DNA of 64,000 nt from NCBI RefSeq assembly GCF_003991155.1, contig NZ_CP031297.1; one strand, 5' to 3'. Below are positions 17,125-55,613 of the stretch, one piece after another. The notes below the pieces were generated by a model. That model worked only from the letters and a program-made list of their open reading frames with translations, was not told where the DNA came from and did no database searches. The translations under genes and the position numbers were made by a program. Numbering within the stretch: position 1 is the first letter of the stretch; each line of letters begins with the position of its first letter. This DNA comes from Escherichia coli (GTDB lineage: Bacteria > Pseudomonadota > Gammaproteobacteria > Enterobacterales > Enterobacteriaceae).

Positions 17125-17502
17125 ATGAAAGTAACTAATAGACTCCAACTGCTGGCACTGGGGCTGTGTATAGCCGGTACTGCCATCGCGGCTCCTGATG
17201 TGCTCAATGACGACGCAAAGCTCAAGAACCTTGAGAAGGTGTGTCCCGACTGTCAGATGGTGGCAAAAGATGTACTCAATCTGCGGGTTGAAAACTGCCA
17301 GCTCAAAGACACTTCCAGTGCAATGATGATTGGCACCATGCAAAATGACCCTATGTTTTCGTTTATGCTGGCTGTACACACAGCGGCAGGCTCGGAGGCA
17401 TACAAAACGGTAGTTGGTGCCGCTGGCAACCATGTTGACTGTGAAAACCCGTTGAACTGGATCAAGCTGACCCAGCAAGCGATTAAAGGTGGCAAAGTCT
17501 AA
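17125..17502 (+). CDS. Small secreted protein (signal peptide MKVTNRLQLLALGLCIAGTAIA)
   Basis: GAGAGGAA SD; signal peptide. Confidence 0.8.
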   Translation: MKVTNRLQLLALGLCIAGTAIAAPDVLNDDAKLKNLEKVCPDCQMVAKDVLNLRVENCQLKDTSSAMMIGTMQNDPMFSFMLAVHTAAGSEAYKTVVGAAGNHVDCENPLNWIKLTQQAIKGGKV

Positions 17503-18164
17503 TGCGTAAGAGAGATTTCTTTTTTGGAGAGGTGTATGAGGGGAGTGGAGGAGCCACTCTACGACTGAGTGATATGGAACCATTGGCAAGAAAAGTGTCG
17601 GCAGAGTTCTTCACTGCACAACTGAACCGTATACTGAAAGAGCATGACGGTCAGTTGACGCTCAGCGATGGAACGTCGTACCCCAGCTTTTGGAGCTTCA
17701 TCGACAAGGTTGATCCAGAGCAGGTTGGTTTCGTGGAGATCTACGCTCGGCAGGATGTTAACGATAATGTTGAAGCGACACTGGCGTGTGACATCGTTTT
17801 GGTAAATGGTGTGATCACCGTTAAACCTCACTGGTGTGCTTACAAAGACATCAGGGCTGACGAAGTGATTTCCACCTTACTGGTGCCTTTGCATTTGAAG
17901 GCTCTCCAGGGTAAGGCTTACATTCGCTGGGATGATGGTGAAACCGAACCTCTGTTACAAAACGACGACTATCAGGCTGAACTTGAAAATGTGTTTAGTG
18001 TTTCCAAGTACCCATCAGCCATGAGCTGGGGCGATACAGCAGACCAGAAGGTTAAGCAGTACAAGATGGACCTTGAGTGCGCCACAGATGTTGGTCGTCG
18101 AGGTGTCTCATCAGAGCAAGCATGGGATGCTTATCGAGAACTCCGTTACAATAGAACAGTGTGA
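17502..18164 (+). CDS. Hypothetical protein of the transfer cluster
   Basis: TAATG overlap; AAAGGTGG SD. Confidence 0.8.
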   Translation: MRKRDFFFGEVYEGSGGATLRLSDMEPLARKVSAEFFTAQLNRILKEHDGQLTLSDGTSYPSFWSFIDKVDPEQVGFVEIYARQDVNDNVEATLACDIVLVNGVITVKPHWCAYKDIRADEVISTLLVPLHLKALQGKAYIRWDDGETEPLLQNDDYQAELENVFSVSKYPSAMSWGDTADQKVKQYKMDLECATDVGRRGVSSEQAWDAYRELRYNRTV

Positions 18165-18190
18165 AACAAGCGGCCATCGGCCGCTTTGAA

Positions 18191-18206
18191 CTTTCACATG
18201 TGAAAG
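18191..18206. promoter_or_regulatory. Palindrome CTTTCACATGTGAAAG (copy 2)
   Basis: Exact copy, intergenic. Confidence 0.5.
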
Positions 18207-18251
18207 TTTTTCGCCTCCCGCTCTTATCATCTCCTCGAATAAACCTCCATA

Positions 18252-18281
18252 AAGTGCCCAAAATGGGCCGTAACAGCACTG
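18252..18281 (+). promoter_or_regulatory. Motif B (GTGCCC-AAAAT-GGGC ... TAACAGCA), copy 2
   Basis: About 45 bp downstream of palindrome copy 2. Confidence 0.4.
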
Positions 18282-18344
18282 TTCCTAGATTGATCAATTA
18301 AGAGACGATTACTCCGTGATGACGACAAGTTATTTGGAGGGTCT

Positions 18345-18488
18345 ATGTCCGCACAAGCTCACGTCAGAGAAAGCGAAAGCTCATCTGGTTCATTCATCTC
18401 CTGGCAGTTCCTTGTCTGGCAGGTGATGTTCGTTATAGGTGTTGTTGCAGGGATGAACCTGGAACACGCATTCAATTTTCTAGGTTAA
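18345..18488 (+). CDS. Small hydrophobic protein (47 aa)
   Basis: ATG with GGAGGG SD; stop overlaps next start (TAATG); not in ORF track (below size cutoff). Confidence 0.35.
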   Translation: MSAQAHVRESESSSGSFISWQFLVWQVMFVIGVVAGMNLEHAFNFLG

Positions 18489-18865
18489 TGGGAGGAAGTG
18501 TGAACCTTAATAAACAATTTTTCTGGTTTTTGATGAACGCGGTGCTGATGTGCATCTTCATCGTTCCAGTGGCCGTCGCGTTTTGGCTGTCTGCTTTTGC
18601 GGCAGGTTTTGACTGGAGTCAGTGGGTTAAGTTGGCTGCTGATACGGCCAACAGAGCTGCAAGTGACCCGGCCAAGGCTCTGGGCACGGTTCAGACCTAC
18701 TGGGGCATTCTCAGCTTCTTCCTGCTGGCGGCGTACAGTCTGATGTTCAAGTTTAAAGCCAATGCTAACAAGGAAGTGAAAACTCTGGAGGTGGCCCGAC
18801 CAGCCAATGAAGTTAGCGTTGCGGCTTCGGAAAAACATTCGGAAGCGGTTCCTCAAAATCAATAA
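18488..18865 (+). CDS. Membrane protein of the transfer cluster
   Basis: ORF 125 aa with two hydrophobic segments. Confidence 0.75.
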   Translation: MGGSVNLNKQFFWFLMNAVLMCIFIVPVAVAFWLSAFAAGFDWSQWVKLAADTANRAASDPAKALGTVQTYWGILSFFLLAAYSLMFKFKANANKEVKTLEVARPANEVSVAASEKHSEAVPQNQ

Positions 18866-18882
18866 CCGATCCAGTAAACGCA

Positions 18883-18912
18883 AAAAAGGCGGCTTAGGCC
18901 GCCTTTTTTTAT
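18883..18912 (+). terminator. Intrinsic terminator (GGCGGC-ttag-GCCGCC + T-run)
   Basis: Perfect GC hairpin followed by TTTTTTT. Confidence 0.7.
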
Positions 18913-18920
18913 TTGTCGCT

Positions 18921-18952
18921 GGAAGTGCCCGAAAAGGGCGCGAAGCCGTGGC
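18921..18952 (+). promoter_or_regulatory. Motif B (GTGCCC-GAAAA-GGGC), copy 3
   Basis: 10 bp after terminator, 60 bp before next operon. Confidence 0.4.
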
Positions 18953-19009
18953 AGAAAATCAGTGACCCTGAATGAGAATACAGGCCACTAGGAAAAGAAG
19001 AGGGTTGCT

Positions 19010-19291
19010 ATGAAGCCTGTAAAGATACCGCGCCGGGTCGATGAGCCCCCGCATCTGCTGTTGTGGAGCGCAGATGAGTTGGCCCCGATGCTTTTGGGGC
19101 TAACGATAGGGGTCATCATCGGTAAGGCTCTGATCTGCTTTCTGGGGGGGTTACTTGTAACCAACCTTTATCGCCGATTCAGGGATAACCATCCGGATGG
19201 ATACCTGCTCCACATGATCTACTGGGCCGGGTTCATCATGACCAAGGCCAAATCTCTCAAGAACCCGTTTGTCCGGAGGTATTTGCCTTGA
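19010..19291 (+). CDS. Small membrane protein of the T4SS cluster
   Basis: AAGAGGG SD; hydrophobic core. Confidence 0.8.
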   Translation: MKPVKIPRRVDEPPHLLLWSADELAPMLLGLTIGVIIGKALICFLGGLLVTNLYRRFRDNHPDGYLLHMIYWAGFIMTKAKSLKNPFVRRYLP

Positions 19292-19914
19292 ACCTGAAAA
19301 AGTATCTCAAGACCTGGGAAGGGACCCAAACAGAAAATAAGTGGGGGCGAATCTTCCAGGGTGGTCTTATTGCTATCGTTTTCCTGCTGGTGGTCCAAGT
19401 ATTCAGCAAGGAAACCATCGTCACTATCCAGCCTTTCACGCTCACGGAAGAAGCCTGGGTGACGAAAAGTAACGCCTCTCAGTCCTATAAAGAGGCTTGG
19501 GGTTTCGCTTTTGCTCAGCTCCTTGGCAATGTGACGCCAGGAACCGTTGACTTTGTGAAAGAACGGATCACCCCGCTTCTCTCCCCGAGCATCTATCAGG
19601 ACGTGATTGATGCCATCGAAATTCAAGCTCAACAGATCAAGAACGACCGCGTAACCATGCGGTTTGAGCCGCGTTTTGTTGAGTACGAGCCCAAGAGCGA
19701 CAAGGTGTTTGTCTACGGATATTCCTACGTCAAAGGGGCTTCTTCTAACGAAGAGCGTAGCGAACGCTCCTACGAGTTCGCCATCAAGATTTCAAACTAC
19801 GCGCCCGTGCTGGACTACATCGACACCTATGTAGGAAAGCCACGCACCAAAACTGTTTTGGAGCAACTCCAGCGCAAAGAAGAAAACCGGAGAAAGCATG
19901 AAGAACAACGCTAA
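19288..19914 (+). CDS. Membrane-anchored T4SS protein (TTG start)
   Basis: TTG start with GGAGG SD overlapping preceding stop; single N-terminal TM. Confidence 0.7.
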   Translation: MNLKKYLKTWEGTQTENKWGRIFQGGLIAIVFLLVVQVFSKETIVTIQPFTLTEEAWVTKSNASQSYKEAWGFAFAQLLGNVTPGTVDFVKERITPLLSPSIYQDVIDAIEIQAQQIKNDRVTMRFEPRFVEYEPKSDKVFVYGYSYVKGASSNEERSERSYEFAIKISNYAPVLDYIDTYVGKPRTKTVLEQLQRKEENRRKHEEQR

Positions 19915-23236: not shown

Positions 23237-23299
23237 ATGCACTCCCTCCCGTAACCTCCAGCATTGGGTTCTTGTAACTCAAAACGAATGGAGAATGCG

Positions 23300-26200
23300 A
23301 TGATCAATTTCAAGCCTAAAATTCCGGCGATGCTTGGGGCTCTGGCGGTTCTTACCGCTGGTGCTGCTCATGCAGAGCTGCTGGAATACACCTTTAAGGC
23401 TCCAGATGGTACGCAACGGTCTCTGACTCCGAATGCCAACTATGCCAACCCAACGGGCAATATCTCGTTTGCCTTGAGTGCCGGTATCGACCGAAAGGTA
23501 AAGATTTCGGTGCTTCGGTCGGATGGAACAGTGGTTTCGACAGCGACCAGCCACCTTCTTGGGGCTACTGATCGCATCACAGTGGGTGGAAAATCCTACT
23601 ATGGTGCGGAACTTCAACTACCAGCTCCAGTTGGTGGGGCATACACTATCAGGGCGGAAATTCTTGCCTCTGATGGTTCTACAGTACAGACGGATGAATA
23701 CCCTCTTACTGTCGATGTGACGCCGCCAACCTACTCTTCGCTTGCCCCGGTTTATAGTAACTATGGGCAGGTTACTAGCGGTGATGTTTGGAAACTGGGT
23801 CTAGGTGGCTCTGAGGATAATGCCTTTTTGCTGTCAGGAATCTCTGATGAGTCACCCATCAAAGGCGTCAAAGCAAAGCTGTATCGTCAAGACGGTTCAC
23901 TCTACAAAGATGTATCCGTGAACTACGATGACGCTAACGGACAAGCTAGACAGTCTTTCCAATCTGGCTTTTTCCCAGCCTCTGACTTGGATGAAGTGTT
24001 TACACTTCAGTTTGAGATAAGCGATAGCGCTGGAAATAGCTATCTTTCACCTCGTCAAAAAGTGATGTTTGATAGCATAACCAATGCTCCGTCTGCACCT
24101 TTTGGTGTTTATGACCCTTCAAGTACAAACAACTTAGGCCCTGGATTAACCGGATTTGTTGCTTACACTGAGGGCATGACAGTTAAAACTAACCCAATCA
24201 AGTTAGCTTGGCGTGTTCCGCGTGATAACTGGCATGAGTATAGAGAAGGTGGGATAAATATGACCAATGCCTTGGGAGAGATGTCCAAGGTAGGAGAAGA
24301 TGCCAGCTATGTTTATCTCGTCACAACCGCACCTTATGGCAATACCGACGGCAATTATTGGCGTTGGGTGAACTTCGGCCAGTGGGGGGGAGGCGGTATT
24401 GCTTATAACCTCACACTCTCTCCATCAGCGCCTAAAAGTCCCAGACTTTTGGGTGTGGACTACAATTACAGTGATATAGGATGGTCTAGTTTTTACCGCT
24501 ACTGGGTGAACAATTCTGTTCTTCCTGTCACTGTTAGTAGTATCCGTGTCAAAGTTGAACCAAGGCCTTACGTTCAAACTGCCGTTCACAGGGGAAGCTG
24601 TGAAATTCCTGTTGGTCAAGATAGCTGCGTGATTGCAAATAGCTTCACAATGGCTAAAGGCACAACAGGGTACGTCCACGATAATGCGACAGTTTTCAAT
24701 CCGGATAAATCTCTTCGCTCGAATCCTCTTTGGGCAGAGGTTAACTGGAACGATCAGCACTACCCTCAGCTAAGTCAGCAGTTCGATCAAAATAGCAAGG
24801 TATTTACCTTATTCGTTAACCAGCCAGGACGAGGCGCTTACTTTGATAGGCTGCGTCTGCGAAGTGCATGGATTGAAGATAGCAAAGGCAACAAGCTGTC
24901 TCCAACTGGTGGGTTAATAGCCAACAACTGGGAGAACTACACTTACCAGTGGGATCTTAAAACTCTCCCTGAGGGGCAATACAGTCTTGTTGCCGCAGCA
25001 GAGGAGATGCACGGGCCTTTAACGCGACAACCAATGTTCCAGATAACGTCTGATAGAACGCCACCAACCATGACACTCAGTGTGGCAGATGGAGCAGCTA
25101 TCCAGACTCTAGATGATGTTGTTATTACCTTGGCTGATGCTATCGACCCTTCACCTAAATTGACCTCTATTGCCCTTGTAGGGGGGCCTGCCAATGACAA
25201 GGTGCAGTTGTCTTGGCGTGAGGAGTCGAAAGGTCGATTCCGCCTTGAGTACCCGGTAATGTTCCCTTCTTTGAAGGAAGGGGAATCTTACACGCTGACT
25301 GTTTCCGGTGAGGATGCACAAGGCAATGCGGTTCAAAAGGCTGTTGGCTTCGAGTACAAACCTCGTCAGGTAATGCTGGCGGATGGGATGGATGGCAAGG
25401 TCATGGTCCCCGCTGTCACTCATGAATTTGTTCATGCAGATGGCAAACGGATCATCGAAACCAAGCCGCTGACGCTCAGTGATGGTGCTGTCGTGACAGG
25501 TTCATACGACGTGTTTGCGACCCTACGTTCTGATGCGAAAGTACCGCTGGTGGTTAATGGGGTGCGTATCGAGCCAGGCCAGACAATGGGGATCATGAGC
25601 CAACATGATTTCGGTGCGTCAGGTGGTCGTTTGAGCATTCCGGTTAAACCTGCTGTTCCTGATGTGGTCGGCTCTTCCAGCCTTCTTGTCATGACCTCCG
25701 CGCCGAACTCACCCATCTTGGTTGTGGACATCAATACCTGGAAAGGGACGGCTAAGCTCTCTGCTGAATCATGGACAATTCGCCAGGTCATTGACCCAGT
25801 GAAAATCTATGCCCTGCCAGAGTCGGGTGTGCCTTGCCGGTTCACCACGAAAGAGGATGTGGCTATGGCCGCAGACCCAATTCGTGACCCGGTGTGTTTG
25901 CTCCAGTGGGACAGAACTCCAGATGAGGCTGAACAAACTACGCAGGACAACAACGGGATGAAAGTTGCTGGGCTGGTGGGGCAGGCTGTGAGCATTGGTG
26001 AACAACCTGTCGAATACAGCCTGTACCTGTTCAGTGGTGACGGTTCCAAGGTAAAAGTTGGGTCTGGCTCTCAGAACCTGACGGTAACTACTGCCTATGG
26101 CTCTGTTGGCTACACCCCGATTGATGACATTGCTCAGGTGAATCGCGTCATTGAAGATTTTGATGTGAACTTCAAGCAGAGCAAGGGGCCAGACTGTTCT

Positions 26201-39777: not shown

Positions 39778-40419
39778 TTATGCTGCTTTTGTTTTCTCGG
39801 CTTCGTCTGCGATTTCCTTGTCGCCGGTTGCAGATTCCGGAGCGGCTTCGGCCACTTCACCTTCTTTGCCTTTGCTGTGGGCGGAAATGCGAGCCCGTTT
39901 CTCGATGCCGATGATTCGACCGGCCAGCTTGATGAGGCGTTGCTGCCATTGGTAAGTGGCGTCGGTGCGCTGCTTGCTGGTCAGTACGGTGTTCAGCCAG
40001 AGAGTGTCAACGATCCCCATCAGGGTATCCAGTTTGCGGATCAGGTGTGCAAACTGAGCAACCTGAGGAGAGTTGATCTCGATGGTGTATTCATTCGGGT
40101 TGGTGTAGCCGGGCATCATGTCGATGCCGTTGTCTTCCATCAGCTTGTTGAGCTGGGCGGTAGCTTTGTCCAGGTCTTCGGAGACCTTGGAAATGTGTTC
40201 CAGGATGACGGTTTCAACCTGGTCGATTTCGTCCTGCTCACCGATGATGCGAAGGATCACGTCGATGGAGAACAGGGAGTTGGAAACTCGCTCAAAGCTG
40301 CGTTCCATGACGCGCTGAGCTTGGAGGCTGTTTACTTTCAGAACTTGCTTGAAAACAGGGCGAGAGTAGTGGTTGCTGCGGTCGTTGTTTGTGTCCAGTG
40401 CTACTTGTGCTTCTGCCAT
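39778..40419 (-). CDS. Hypothetical protein with Lys/Glu-rich C-terminus
   Basis: ATG at 40419 with AGGAG SD (residue 21 of ORF 39778..40479). Confidence 0.75.
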   Translation of the reverse strand: MAEAQVALDTNNDRSNHYSRPVFKQVLKVNSLQAQRVMERSFERVSNSLFSIDVILRIIGEQDEIDQVETVILEHISKVSEDLDKATAQLNKLMEDNGIDMMPGYTNPNEYTIEINSPQVAQFAHLIRKLDTLMGIVDTLWLNTVLTSKQRTDATYQWQQRLIKLAGRIIGIEKRARISAHSKGKEGEVAEAAPESATGDKEIADEAEKTKAA

Positions 40420-40497
40420 TAGAGATACTCCTAAATTTGAGGTACAGATAAACGCACTGGAAAGGATAAATGCGGTCAATCTGTAACCTGACCTCTC

Positions 40498-40530
40498 GAA
40501 GTGCCCAAAATGGACAGTTACAGCGTTTTC
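40498..40530 (+). promoter_or_regulatory. Motif B (GTGCCC-AAAAT-GGAC ... TTACAGCG), copy 6
   Basis: Divergent intergenic region before the array. Confidence 0.4.
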
Positions 40531-40565
40531 TGTTTAGCAAAGGTGAGCTATATTTGAATCATCTT

Positions 40566-40616
40566 AGTCGCTCTGCGGCTATAGGTGAGATAGCTGGTCT
40601 CCGAAAACAAACAGCA
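40566..40616 (+). promoter_or_regulatory. Conserved leader element C, copy 1 (hairpin GAGA-TAGCTGG-TCTC + CGAAAACAAACAGCA)
   Basis: Seven related copies, each before a gene block. Confidence 0.45.
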
Positions 40617-40713
40617 TCTAGTCTTATGCCGTATGGCATTACTTAACCCCAAGCCGGGGGCTTCTCCCGGTTTTCGGGTGTTGCCCCTGTTTTTTTTACA
40701 TAGGAGCAACACC

Positions 40714-41034
40714 ATGCACATCATCACTTTCATTGTAGTTCTGCTTGCATCTCTGGGCGCACTGTACGTAGGCGCGAAGGCATTTGCTTTTTCCTTCATC
40801 GTTCTCGCTAAAGTGTTCCAGCGTATCGGTTTGTTCCTTTGGAACAAATTCGCAGTTCCTGCAATGCGGTCTGTACAGGCCGTCATCAAAGAACGTGCTG
40901 CCAAGGCTGAACAAGCCAAAGCAGTCGTTGAACCTGAGGTAACTCAAGTTCAAGAAGTCGCTAAACAAGAACCTGACTGGGATTATCTCGAAATCCCGAC
41001 TTACCTTCGTAAGGGCAAGGAACTTGTTTGGTAA
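40714..41034 (+). CDS. Small membrane protein carrying an FtsZ C-terminal-peptide-like tail (EPDWDYLEIPTYLRK)
   Basis: ATG at 40714 with AGGAG SD; N-terminal hydrophobic 35 aa; C-terminus matches the FtsZ conserved C-terminal peptide (E. coli ...EPDYLDIPAFLRKQAD, from memory). Confidence 0.75.
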   Translation: MHIITFIVVLLASLGALYVGAKAFAFSFIVLAKVFQRIGLFLWNKFAVPAMRSVQAVIKERAAKAEQAKAVVEPEVTQVQEVAKQEPDWDYLEIPTYLRKGKELVW

Positions 41035-41073
41035 TAACTGTCGCTGAGTAATCTTCGACACTTTCAAACCCAT

Positions 41074-41113
41074 CGGGGCAACCATACCCCGACGGGGATG
41101 TTGCCCCTTTTTG
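41074..41113 (+). terminator. Terminator-like hairpin (GGGGCAAC ... GTTGCCCC + TTTTT)
   Basis: GC stem + T-run after gene 40714..41034. Confidence 0.45.
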
Positions 41114-41128
41114 CTTAGGAGCAACATC

Positions 41129-41221
41129 ATGGAAATCGCTATCATCGCTTTGTGTATCCCTGCTGGTTGGGCAATCTCTCGTCCTTTCGTGAGAATCGCT
41201 GAATCGTTCGGTTACTGCTGA
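41129..41221 (+). CDS. Tiny hydrophobic peptide (30 aa)
   Basis: Same TAGGAGCAACAYCATG context as the preceding gene; MEIAIIALCIPAGWAISRPFVRIAESFGYC. Confidence 0.35.
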   Translation: MEIAIIALCIPAGWAISRPFVRIAESFGYC

Positions 41222-41337
41222 TAGTCAACGCAAAGGGAGGGGGCAACCCCTCTCTTTCTGGTCAAGCCTCTGTGGCTTGTCCTCAAAGTCTTCTGGTGTC
41301 AGTTGGCTTTGACGACAAGCTACAGGGGGAATGTCGA

Positions 41338-41523
41338 ATGCAACAGAATCTTCATGTTTACGACGATCACGCAGGCATCATCTATCTGGCTGATGGACGC
41401 GAGGTGAAATTTGATCCGAAACTGTATTCCAGCTCCTACCAGGCGCACAGTGAAGCAGTGAAGTGGGCCAAAGAAACCGGGGTCATTGGTCAAAACGACG
41501 ATGTGGTGATGTTCGTCCATTGA
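41338..41523 (+). CDS. Small hypothetical protein (61 aa)
   Basis: ATG at 41338 with AGGGGGA SD. Confidence 0.5.
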   Translation: MQQNLHVYDDHAGIIYLADGREVKFDPKLYSSSYQAHSEAVKWAKETGVIGQNDDVVMFVH

Positions 41524-41600
41524 GGGAGTAGCCTCCAGGAGAGGCTACTCTCCTCGCTCCTTAAAAGTCTTCTTACTCATGGTGAATACCATCAGTAAGC

Positions 41601-41660
41601 AGATTTTGTTCTCTTCGGAGAGCGAAAAGTGCGATAGCTGGTCGCCAAAAACAAACAGCA
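41601..41660 (+). promoter_or_regulatory. Leader element C, copy 2 (hairpin CTCTTCGGAGAG, hairpin GCGA-TAGCTGG-TCGC, CAAAAACAAACAGCA)
   Basis: Part of a 121-bp block identical to 46436..46556. Confidence 0.5.
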
Positions 41661-41742
41661 AATTAACGTTAATTTACTAGCCCAACCGGGCGCATCCGCC
41701 CGGTTCGGGACGTGGTGCGCCTGTCACAATAGGAGCGCACCT

Positions 41743-42711
41743 ATGTCTCAATACTCTCAATTCTCAGTAAGCAAGGTTTTCGGTATGCCCAGCATTCCGG
41801 AGAAGGTAACGGCCATCGGCTACGCTGACGGTTCAAACCCTTTCATCCCTGCCACTGATACCAACTACGTTTTCCGCAAAGAGTTTCTGCGAGAGGTCTT
41901 GGCCTATCTCAAAGAGCCTGGCGGTGACGCATTGTTCGTAACCGGCCCTACCGGGTCTGGCAAAACCTCAGGTATCACCGAGATCGCTGGTCGTCTCAAC
42001 TGGCCTGTTCAGCAAATCACTGCCCACGGGCGGATGGAGCTGACAGATCTGATTGGACATCACGCTCTGGTCGCGGAAAAGCCTGGTCAACCACCTGTCA
42101 TGAAGTTCATGTATGGACCTCTGGCAGTCGCTATGCGTGAAGGTCATCTGCTCCTCATCAACGAGGTGGATTTGGCCGACCCTGCCGAGCTGGCTGGTCT
42201 CAACGATGTCCTTGAAGGGCGTCCCCTTGTGATCGCTCAGAATGGCGGGGAAATCATCAAGCCGCACCCGATGTTTCGTGTGGTCGTTACTGGTAACTCT
42301 ACGGGGTCCGGTGATGCTTCTGGTTTGTACCAGGGGGTGATGATGCAGAACCTCGCAGCTATGGATCGCTATCGTTTCACCAAAGTAGGGTATGCGGATG
42401 AGGAAGCTGAACTCAGCATTCTTGGCCGTGCTACTCCGAAACTTCCGGAAAATGTGCGGAAGGGAATGGTTCGGATTGCTAATCAGGTCCGCAAACTGTT
42501 TCTTGGCGAAAACGGTGAAGATGGTCAGATCAGCGTCACCATGTCCACTCGGACGTTGGTGCGTTGGGCGAAACTGTCTCTAGCGTTCCGTGGTGCCCCA
42601 AATGCTCTTGAATACGCCTTGGATCAAGCTCTGCTTATCCGTGCGGCCAAAGAGGAGCGTGAAGCCATCCTGCGTGTTGCGAAGGATGTGTTCGGGGACC
42701 AATGGCGCTAA
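41743..42711 (+). CDS. AAA+ ATPase, MoxR/CobS-like
   Basis: Walker A GPTGSGKTS; Walker B LLLINEVD; 322 aa. Confidence 0.85.
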   Translation: MSQYSQFSVSKVFGMPSIPEKVTAIGYADGSNPFIPATDTNYVFRKEFLREVLAYLKEPGGDALFVTGPTGSGKTSGITEIAGRLNWPVQQITAHGRMELTDLIGHHALVAEKPGQPPVMKFMYGPLAVAMREGHLLLINEVDLADPAELAGLNDVLEGRPLVIAQNGGEIIKPHPMFRVVVTGNSTGSGDASGLYQGVMMQNLAAMDRYRFTKVGYADEEAELSILGRATPKLPENVRKGMVRIANQVRKLFLGENGEDGQISVTMSTRTLVRWAKLSLAFRGAPNALEYALDQALLIRAAKEEREAILRVAKDVFGDQWR

Positions 42712-42721
42712 GAGGTGACGC

Positions 42722-43630
42722 ATGAAGAAAAATGACTGTTTGTGCCGTCGTTACACTGCTAAAGAGTGGGGCAATGACGAAACCACAATAGAAGTCTTCA
42801 TTGGCTACAAGTTGCTCCGGGAGCCCAGCTCCTCGGAGCCAGGCCAATTCACGATGGTCGAGCTACGCCGAACCGTCACTGATGGGAAAGCTGAAAATTG
42901 GTCTGAGACAAAGCTCGAAGGACCTTTTGAAGCTAACGGCCCAGACACGATCCCAATGTCCTACAAGGACAAAGAAAGCCAGTATGTGTCACAGTTTCTC
43001 AGCCAGGGGTACACCTTTCTGGATGAGGTGCTGGTAAACGCAGAGACACAGACGGTGCTGGAAGGGGGGAATGTTTCAGCCGGACAAACAGCCAGCTTGG
43101 GATCTCTCAACTGGCTGTTATCTCCGCCCTCTGAGTTACCTCCAGGTGACATAAACCTCTTCAAAGGTTTTGTTGCTGGGGTTTTTGCCAAAGGAGCCGG
43201 TTTAATCGGCTTTGAGGTTGCTCGGAGCGAAGGCTCAAATGACTTGCTACCCAGTGTGCTGATGCGTACTGACAGCGGTTATGAGCTTGGGGTTAGCACT
43301 GGACTAGGCGAAAACACTATCCATCCAGCTACGCTGGAAGGCGCTGGTGAACTCCGCCCGGAACATGGTCACAAACCCCTGCTGATGTTGGTTTACCTGC
43401 AACAGCGTTTCGCGGATGACTTTTCAAACGTAGAGAAGCCGCTGGTGGCATTCTGTGATGAACAGGGTGATACCTTCGACTACGAGCGTTTTGATTCACT
43501 AAAACCCCTCATTGAACGGTTTGGTTTCAGCTACGACGAAGTAAGAGCAGATGCAGAAAGGCTTGGCCTTGTATCTGAGCTGATTCGCCTGGCAGAGATC
43601 GACGCCGAACAAGAGGATCACTTTTTTTAA
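42722..43630 (+). CDS. Hypothetical protein
   Basis: AGAGGTGA SD; 302 aa. Confidence 0.8.
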   Translation: MKKNDCLCRRYTAKEWGNDETTIEVFIGYKLLREPSSSEPGQFTMVELRRTVTDGKAENWSETKLEGPFEANGPDTIPMSYKDKESQYVSQFLSQGYTFLDEVLVNAETQTVLEGGNVSAGQTASLGSLNWLLSPPSELPPGDINLFKGFVAGVFAKGAGLIGFEVARSEGSNDLLPSVLMRTDSGYELGVSTGLGENTIHPATLEGAGELRPEHGHKPLLMLVYLQQRFADDFSNVEKPLVAFCDEQGDTFDYERFDSLKPLIERFGFSYDEVRADAERLGLVSELIRLAEIDAEQEDHFF

Positions 43631-44221: not shown

Positions 44222-44238
44222 CACCGCCAACTCTTACT

Positions 44239-44284
44239 AAACCCCACGGGGGCACTCATGCCCCGAGGGGGTCATGGTGTCCTC
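44239..44284 (+). repeat. Intercistronic GC-hairpin element, example 2 (CATGGTGT pairs with ACACCATG at the recT start)
   Basis: Upstream segment is complementary to the SD/start region. Confidence 0.6.
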
Positions 44285-46378: not shown

Positions 46379-46435
46379 GTGGGGGATTTTCCCCCGCTTT
46401 CCCTTGGGGATTCTGGGAGTCTCCAACGGAAAGCA

Positions 46436-46495
46436 AGATTTTGTTCTCTTCGGAGAGCGAAAAGTGCGATAGCTGGTCGCCAAAAACAAACAGCA
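46436..46495 (+). promoter_or_regulatory. Leader element C, copy 3 (identical to copy 2)
   Basis: 121-bp identity with 41601..41721. Confidence 0.5.
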
Positions 46496-46577
46496 AATTA
46501 ACGTTAATTTACTAGCCCAACCGGGCGCATCCGCCCGGTTCGGGACGTGGTGCGCCCCCAACTTTTTGGAGTGCATC

Positions 46578-55536: not shown

Positions 55537-55613
55537 GAACCACTTTAAACCCATCGGGGCCATTACTTCCCGATTGGGACGGTAGTGGCCTCTCAACCGA
55601 AAGGAGAGAGCTC

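Follow-up and report, generated by a model that had tools for sequence, protein, structure and literature searches.

The window considered here is a 64,000-nucleotide stretch of Escherichia coli DNA (contig NZ_CP031297.1) that represents the backbone of an IncC (A/C2) conjugative plasmid. Our subject is a 47-codon open reading frame (ORF) at 18345–18488 of this window, ORF A, which is the gene vcrx068, together with its neighbor vcrx069 and a second small reading frame, ORF B, at 41129–41221. The segment from 17400 to 19400 is 100% identical to hundreds of IncC (A/C2) plasmids (Klebsiella, Salmonella, Escherichia, Vibrio, and others), typed MOBH / MPF_F, and the genes adjoining ORF A match TraL, TraE, and TraA profiles. 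Thus, ORF A is part of the conserved transfer backbone of plasmids that have been sequenced very extensively. Reading frames of such size are uninformative by themselves, since 133 ORFs of at least 25 amino acids (aa) overlap 10 kb of the window; that ORF A and ORF B are real rests on conservation and published transcript mapping, not on the ORFs as such. The vcrx068 locus contains the following features.

18191..18206, no strand assigned: perfect 16-bp palindrome CTTTCACATGTGAAAG, a parS-type site read in the sequence upstream of the AcaCD box
18250..18278, plus strand: AcaCD activator motif TAAAGTGCCCAAAATGGGCCGTAACAGCA of the vcrx068 promoter (Carraro 2014, Table S3, mapped to the window)
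18314..18316, plus strand: transcription start of vcrx068-vcrx069 (5' rapid amplification of cDNA ends [5'-RACE], Carraro 2014, mapped), giving a leader of 29–31 nucleotides (nt)
18336..18341, plus strand: vcrx068 Shine-Dalgarno (SD) sequence GGAGGG, 3 nt before the ATG, read in the sequence
18345..18488, plus strand: vcrx068 coding sequence, 47 aa, MSAQAHVRESESSSGSFISWQFLVWQVMFVIGVVAGMNLEHAFNFLG, based on the ORF, annotation, RNA sequencing, substitution ratios, and syntenic homologues
18369..18380, plus strand: tandem GAAAGC, two copies encoding ESES, seen in the alignment and in protein variants
18490..18502, plus strand: vcrx069 SD sequence GGGAGGA (18490–18496) and GTG start (18500–18502), the SD starting 2 nt past the vcrx068 TAA (18486–18488)
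18500..18865, plus strand: vcrx069, 121 aa, WP_001052530.1 (also.531.1), pVCR94 42975–43340
18882..18909, plus strand: strong intrinsic terminator of the vcrx068-vcrx069 unit, a 12-bp stem and T run
18921..18949 and 18985..18987, plus strand: AcaCD box and transcription start of the traL promoter (Carraro 2014, Table S3, mapped)

An original prediction, made from the letters of the DNA, had described ORF A and ORF B as unannotated small hydrophobic ORFs with strong ribosome-binding sites. The reading frames themselves are as described: ORF A is an ATG ORF of 47 codons preceded by GGAGGG, ORF B is an ATG ORF of 30 codons preceded by AGGAG at 41117–41121, and a hydrophobic stretch is present in both. 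ORF A, however, is an already catalogued, published, and partly annotated gene of IncC resistance plasmids, vcrx068 of pVCR94. Its product is WP_001275801.1 (UniProt G2I9C0), identical to the annotation in NZ_CP022126 and pVCR94deltaX, and the exact sequence occurs on at least 1000 contigs of the sequence collection. RefSeq is inconsistent on vcrx068, which is annotated in many IncC records and missing from others. ORF B is indeed absent from RefSeq records and from pVCR94 but is present in GenBank and UniProt (AZU49982.1 / G2I9E5_ECOLX).

vcrx068 encodes a protein, and purifying selection on it is moderate. The diverged copies compared came from IncA (L005, L010, and L011), a divergent IncC plasmid (L004), Shewanella (L009), an Oceanospirillaceae metagenome-assembled genome (L016), and a Hamiltonella plasmid (L012), with further copies from the metagenomic relatives L018, L019, L024, L026, and L027. 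In at least 8 comparisons, the ratio of nonsynonymous to synonymous differences (pN/pS) was 0.22–0.49 in frame versus 0.25–2.4 (mostly >0.5) in the other two frames, and differences in four phylogenetically independent pairs were distributed 9/9/23 over the codon positions (chi-square p = 0.008). The IncC and L019 copies, which differ at 44/141 nucleotides (31% divergence) and share 49% protein identity, have the same length of exactly 47 codons; random changes at that number keep the frame and both ends in about 5% of simulated sequences, a figure that concerns the IncC/L019 pair alone. Frame-specific pN/pS, codon-position bias, and intact ends despite divergence together carry the conclusion that vcrx068 is coding. 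The conservation that the original prediction had proposed as a check is therefore clear for ORF A; it is weak for ORF B, as described below.

Two further observations were considered as evidence of selection and set aside. The GAAAGC unit is present in 1, 2, or 3 copies among plasmids (RESSSG / RESESSSG / RESESESSSG), but these in-frame 6-nt indels reflect repeat slippage and are uninformative on coding because the tandem unit is itself 6 bp. In L004 and L016, DNA identity is 97–99% for vcrx068 versus 84% for vcrx069; rather than strong selection, a recombination boundary is more likely, since the upstream promoter is equally identical.

The transcriptional context has been mapped in pVCR94, whose coordinates were transferred to the window with an offset of 24475, checked by 2 mismatches in 846 nt. 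Carraro et al. 2014 (PLoS Genet 10:e1004714, PMC4207636) placed the vcrx068 motif at pVCR94 42725–42753 (p = 6.6e-11), under a peak of chromatin immunoprecipitation with exonuclease digestion (ChIP-exo), and obtained a 5'-RACE signal at pVCR94 42789–42791 with vcrx068 as the first gene. In their RNA sequencing data, vcrx068 had a value of 0 in the delta-acaCD strain versus 550 upon complementation, and vcrx069 had a value of 1 versus 2699; the study gives vcrx068 merely as an AcaCD-activated ORF without an assigned function. The vcrx068 promoter has since been cloned as an AcaCD/SgaCD reporter (Durand 2021), and the Kiss laboratory listed vcrx068 as one of four AcaCD-regulated IncC operons in which parS and the AcaCD site are arranged in the promoter region in a manner analogous to SGI1 (PMC10954446). 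In our reading of the sequence, palindrome CTTTCACATGTGAAAG would be the parS of that work.

These promoter elements are shared with relatives, and the unit that they control is self-contained. The AcaCD motif is 100% conserved in L004, L006, and L016 and 86% conserved in IncA, and the palindrome is also found upstream of the small ORF in L019, L018, pVAS19, and pAsa4b. The intrinsic terminator separates vcrx068-vcrx069 from the traL promoter, and the unit lies directly upstream of the traLEKBVA mating-pore operon. The order seen in the window, namely parS palindrome, AcaCD box, vcrx068, vcrx069 where present, and traL promoter, recurs in L019, L018, pVAS19, pAsa4b, and pAhD4-1. vcrx068 is the first gene of a discrete bicistronic unit with its own AcaCD-dependent promoter, mapped start, and own terminator. 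The suggestion that the small ORFs stand at the head of operons holds to this extent: ORF A heads a short transfer-regulated operon beside type IV secretion system (T4SS) genes, but ORF B lies downstream of vcrx087.

The vcrx068 family is small and confined to one group of plasmids. A phmmer search of 1.84 billion representative proteins gave 4 matches, two distant ones of which are also exactly 47 aa long. A profile built from ten diverse members found 26 proteins of 42–83 aa (most 45–55 aa), all labelled 'hypothetical', from Enterobacterales, Vibrio, Photobacterium, Aeromonas-type plasmids, Shewanella, Plesiomonas, Xenorhabdus, and Hamiltonella. By both searches, the family was found solely in the A/C-like clade. 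All IncC, IncA, pAQU-like, and pAsa4-like plasmids examined have a 45–55 aa homologue at this position, even where identity is down to 28–49%, and a 47-aa gene lies immediately upstream in each diverged locus fetched via vcrx069 homologues (59–80% identity). In pVAS19 (pAQU-like; TraL 85%), pAsa4b, and pAhD4-1, a palindrome, an AcaCD-like box, an SD sequence, and an ORF of 47–50 aa precede the traL promoter in the same architecture but without vcrx069, of which only the last few codons are left in pAsa4b. Thus, vcrx068 is the more widely kept partner, being retained where vcrx069 is missing. The gene set between the DtrJ-like gene and vcrx068 differs among relatives, and vcrx068 is fixed beside traL.

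In the Hamiltonella defensa plasmid CP017612 (L012 3001–3252; also L013–L015), a deletion fuses vcrx068 at about codon 38 to the 3' end of the vcrx069 region, and the product is a chimeric ORF of 83 aa or 50 aa. L012 also has a traK interrupted by insertion sequence (IS)-family genes and represents a decaying A/C-like transfer region in an insect symbiont.

In the product of the second gene of the unit, vcrx069, two hydrophobic helices are predicted, and the hydrophilic tail is variable. Homologues of vcrx069 share 59–99% identity, the hydrophobic segments being near-invariant, and nothing above noise was found for vcrx069 in Pfam, NCBIfam, PHROGs, or a PDB sequence search. The original prediction had coupled ORF A to this gene by TAATG, and a mechanical ORF list likewise begins vcrx069 at ATG 18488 (125 aa). 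That ATG is not kept: IncA has TAAGG with a 1-nt insertion, and a distant relative has TAGGAGG. What is conserved, in all lineages with vcrx069, is a G-rich SD that immediately follows or overlaps the stop codon, with a GTG start (ATG in two lineages) 8–15 nt downstream, and comparison gives GTG 18500, behind its own SD, as the start of the 121-aa protein. RefSeq and pVCR94 use the same start; some records carry still shorter versions. The initiation region of vcrx069 is predicted to be mostly paired (0.11–0.36 unpaired), with partners in the last vcrx068 codons in 4/6 lineages. With the GTG and its SD placed right after the vcrx068 stop codon, initiation at vcrx069 is probably assisted by ribosomes that have just completed vcrx068.

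At the vcrx068 start, GGAGG is found at the same spacing in 9/9 lineages compared, and the SD sequence is predicted to be about 57% unpaired in the leader. The encoded protein starts with a polar, Ser/Glu-rich segment, continues with one hydrophobic helix (about residues 17–38), and ends in a short conserved tail. The Kyte-Doolittle maximum over 19 residues is 1.89 for vcrx068 and 2.18 for the 49%-identical homologue. Members of the pAQU subgroup differ in the sequence and length of the Ser/Glu-rich N-terminus but hardly at all in the helix and C-terminal tail. AlphaFold2, given a vcrx068-(G4S)5-vcrx069 fusion and a 9-row paired alignment, placed a helix at vcrx068 residues 15–46 in an otherwise poor model. 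Scans of Pfam, NCBIfam, and PHROGs gave no vcrx068 match above noise (for Pfam, sub-threshold noise only); in the same Pfam and NCBIfam scans, in which vcrx068 and vcrx069 gave none, TraL, TraE, and TraA matched clearly.

ORF B lies between vcrx087 and vcrx088, just upstream of the host-defence evasion (hde) genes vcrx089-093 (Roy 2020), and is flanked by two hairpins.

41075..41112, plus strand: terminator-like hairpin GGGGCAAC...GTTGCCCC followed by T5, after vcrx087, read in the sequence
41129..41221, plus strand: ORF B, 30 aa, MEIAIIALCIPAGWAISRPFVRIAESFGYC, with SD sequence AGGAG at 41117–41121 and a double stop TGA-TAG
41235..41260, plus strand: second terminator-like hairpin GGGAGGGGG-CAA-CCCCTCTC followed by TTTCT, about 13 nt past the ORF B stop

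ORF B had been assigned the same leader as vcrx087. Instead, it follows vcrx087 and a terminator-like hairpin within the AcaCD-induced vcrx087-vcrx088-hde gene string, in which the vcrx087 AcaCD box lies near 40497–40525 and the transcription start near 40560. The ORF is intact in 7 lineages (IncC, IncA, Edwardsiella, Xenorhabdus, pK520-MPH, pAsa4b, and pAhD4-1) with a length of 30 aa, or 33 aa in IncA via a 9-nt duplication. Its pN/pS is 0.22–0.58 in frame and mostly higher out of frame; variable columns fall 8/8/16 by codon position, which is not significant (p = 0.14). The SD sequence and first seven codons are invariant in DNA and can base-pair with the upstream terminator through its 3' arm; this arm of the 41075–41112 hairpin has GCAACATC, immediately ahead of the ORF B start codon, as an alternative partner. 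In the minimum free energy fold, GAUGUUGC and GCAACAUC are paired (z = -5.4 for 41035–41290), and the region from SD to AUG is predicted to be only 25% unpaired. The stem of the second hairpin is kept despite base changes in IncA and Aeromonas plasmids. No match above noise was found for ORF B in Pfam, NCBIfam, or PHROGs, and an Rfam scan of 40400–41800 returned chance-level matches only.

Translation into a hydrophobic peptide is probable for both small ORFs, although ORF B is conserved on weaker evidence than ORF A. ORF B probably encodes another conserved micro-protein or else a leader peptide within the AcaCD-induced vcrx087-vcrx088-hde transcript; in the latter case, it may modulate read-through into vcrx088 and the hde genes.

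A model of vcrx068 function is proposed from its sequence and context. The product would be a 47-residue single-pass inner-membrane protein, in which the membrane helix and short C-terminal tail would carry the function and the Ser/Glu-rich N-terminus would serve as a variable spacer. It would be made in donor cells alongside the type IV secretion machinery and may act there as a membrane-located, lineage-specific accessory to the mating apparatus, contributing to its assembly, stabilisation, or modulation; where vcrx069 exists, vcrx068 probably works with that two-helix membrane protein. We tentatively favor, with less than firm confidence, this combined reading of vcrx068 as the AcaCD-switched first gene of a bicistronic unit and a single-pass membrane accessory of the mating apparatus, with ORF B as a second conserved micro-protein or leader peptide.

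Several points weigh against this model. No vcrx068 phenotype was found in the publications consulted, among them Hegyi 2017 and those of the Burrus laboratory. No homology of vcrx068 to any T4SS component was detected in Pfam, NCBIfam, or PHROGs, and in a MOBH/MPF_F plasmid of Comamonas (TraL 67% identical), traL comes directly after the DUF4400/DtrJ-like gene, with no small ORF in between. The Hamiltonella deletion removed the last codons of vcrx068, although the tra region there is itself decaying, and a pN/pS of 0.2–0.5 indicates moderate constraint at most. The predicted masking of the vcrx069 SD is weak (pair probabilities of 0.3–0.6) and absent in 2/6 lineages. Finally, the vcrx068-vcrx069 fusion model has a predicted local distance difference test score (pLDDT) of 46 and a predicted template modeling score (pTM) of 0.20, so that only helix positions are usable and a complex is unsupported.

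The absence from the Comamonas plasmid places vcrx068 outside the conserved transfer machine. Compared with the core MPF_F components (TraA/L/E/K/B/V/C/W/U/N/F/H/G), vcrx068 has no curated hidden Markov model (HMM) match and is not present across MPF_F/MOBH elements, and the T4SS component suggested by the original prediction is thus unlikely in the sense of a core part. A stronger version of the accessory model, in which vcrx068 is a required but overlooked component or checkpoint of the conjugative apparatus of this clade, such as a pilin- or pore-assembly chaperone or a ParB-site-linked membrane signal, is doubtful; if it were true, vcrx068 would be a clade-specific target for blocking the spread of these multidrug-resistance plasmids. 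TrhR/TrhY of R27 were considered as analogues of vcrx068 and rejected, as they are transcriptional activators of tra operons.

Other explanations assign the peptide a different role or none. The conserved geometry at the junction, with the vcrx068 stop 2 nt before the vcrx069 SD and the GTG 11 nt downstream, together with the largely paired initiation region and its partners in the end of vcrx068, would suit a mainly cis-acting upstream ORF whose translation opens the masked SD/GTG of vcrx069, the peptide itself being irrelevant. A coupled leader of this kind is expected to have its stop within a few nt of the downstream initiation region, as vcrx068 does, but also to encode a dispensable peptide and to exist only with the downstream gene. 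The amino acid sequence of vcrx068 is instead under in-frame purifying selection, its helix and tail are nearly invariant within subgroups, and the gene and its promoter persist without vcrx069 in three plasmids (pVAS19, pAsa4b, and pAhD4-1), which makes this explanation unlikely. Slightly less likely still is a membrane-active toxic or lysis-type peptide, type I toxin- or holin/antiholin-like, that would be made in transfer-competent cells and add to the cost of conjugation or to envelope remodelling. vcrx068 does resemble type I toxins in being a small hydrophobic single-helix peptide, the two-helix protein with a charged tail encoded behind it gives a superficially holin-like layout, and expression is confined to the AcaCD-ON state. 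However, neither an antisense RNA gene nor a family HMM match of the type I toxins (Hok, Ldr, TisB, Ibs/Sho-like) was seen, and Pfam, NCBIfam, and PHROGs gave no toxin or holin match. The sole minus-strand promoter-like site (18504–18475) is at chance level (1 found, 0.6 expected), in a region where Rfam was not run, and the vcrx068 SD is strong and fairly accessible, unlike the occluded SD typical of type I toxins. With no antisense gene and no toxin-family match, nothing points toward the toxic peptide that the original prediction had offered.

Alternatively, ORF A and ORF B may both be non-functional, their conservation reflecting nucleotide-level constraint (promoter, parS, and RNA hairpins) and recent ancestry. 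The identity step in L004/L016 resembles a recombination boundary or nucleotide constraint, the SD and opening seven codons of ORF B, invariant in DNA, pair with an arm of the upstream terminator, and the ORF B codon-position bias is not significant. Against this, ORF A has a frame-specific excess of synonymous change in independent pairs and is intact, with its length kept, at 28–49% protein identity; ORF B is intact in all 7 lineages, and IncC differs from pK520 by six purely synonymous codon changes. We consider this explanation improbable. The entry-exclusion role suggested by the original prediction is highly improbable, even though vcrx068 is a small membrane protein on a conjugative plasmid and adjoins T4SS genes. 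Deleting eexC and sfx abolishes IncC exclusion completely, both genes alone reproduce it, and vcrx068 was not among the nine candidates obtained by transposon-directed insertion site sequencing (TraDIS) in that study (PMC11493245). Exclusion factors act in non-transferring cells, whereas vcrx068 RNA is 0 without AcaCD; compared with EexC, Sfx, and TraS/TraT-like proteins, vcrx068 thus lacks both expression in the recipient state and, per the published data, need or sufficiency for entry or surface exclusion. The membrane accessory model remains our preferred, if tentative, reading.

Other features of the window were noted in passing. vcrx087 occupies 40633–41034, the pVCR94 annotation starting at an internal ATG near 40712, and encodes an AcaCD-induced hydrophobic protein without a family match in Pfam, NCBIfam, or PHROGs. 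Its C-terminus, DWDYLEIPTYLRKGKELVW, resembles the conserved C-terminal peptide of FtsZ, which in E. coli is DYLDIPAFLRKQ, and the motif is kept in the vcrx087 homologue of Aeromonas pK520-MPH (PDLDVPAYLRKGTNIVW). The vcrx087 C-terminus could act as a mimic of the FtsZ tail, to which FtsA, ZipA, and other division proteins bind. Similar GC-rich intergenic hairpins of a family termed D5, AAACCCATCGGGGC...CCCCGAnGGGG, occur at 41063–41098, 44237–44272, and 55544–55579, following genes of the AcaCD-induced region; the first copy is just upstream of ORF B, and the 41075–41112 hairpin belongs to it.

A repeated intergenic element, GTGCGATAGCTGGTCGCCAAAAACAAACAGCA, has a 39-nt core at 40583, 41627, 46462, 50294, 54708, and 58490, with longer copies at 41592–41721 and 46427–46556. 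It is located 50–110 nt upstream of successive plus strand genes and accounts for 4–5 places per plasmid. These are very probably the rptI repeats, which Roy et al. 2020 showed to serve Bet/Exo in the repair of breaks induced by Cas; given its regular position ahead of genes, the element may also be an RNA element. Directly after traA lies a 1840-aa ORF (23264–28786), whose homologue in L019 has bacterial Ig-like domains and DUF4165; its product appears to be a giant protein of the surface or adhesin type, encoded within the mating-pore cluster.

In sum, this analysis extends published work in four respects: it gives evidence of selection on the vcrx068 frame, maps how far the family reaches and that it does not depend on vcrx069, corrects the start of vcrx069, and documents a conserved ORF B omitted by RefSeq. 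IncC plasmids are major multidrug-resistance carriers whose transfer regulon is well mapped, yet vcrx068 and vcrx069 are among the AcaCD-activated genes without an assigned role. As a selected coding gene that is kept across the A/C-like clade independently of vcrx069, vcrx068 is a reasonable candidate for targeted knockout, although no current picture is changed.

With respect to known systems, the pVCR94 genes vcrx068/vcrx069 are the same genes as those in the window, with an identical protein and the same AcaCD box, start site, and neighbors, the 846 nt compared containing 2 mismatches. The tra operon of the F plasmid encodes small non-core inner-membrane proteins, such as TraQ, TrbD, TrbE, and TrbI, which are short, hydrophobic, lineage-restricted, and co-expressed with MPF_F genes. 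vcrx068 is like them in being short, hydrophobic, lineage-restricted, and both encoded among and co-expressed with MPF_F genes, but it showed no sequence similarity to them in the Pfam and NCBIfam scans and, with its own promoter and terminator, stands outside a long tra operon. EexC and Sfx (Humbert 2019; Rivard 2024, PMC11493245) are, like vcrx068, envelope proteins encoded by the same plasmid family, but they are larger (Sfx is a 286-aa lipoprotein) and are expressed without AcaCD. Finally, vcrx068 resembles translationally coupled upstream ORFs in that its stop abuts the SD of a weak GTG start and its end is predicted to mask part of the downstream initiation region; unlike plain members of that class, it encodes a conserved peptide and exists without the downstream gene in three plasmid lineages.

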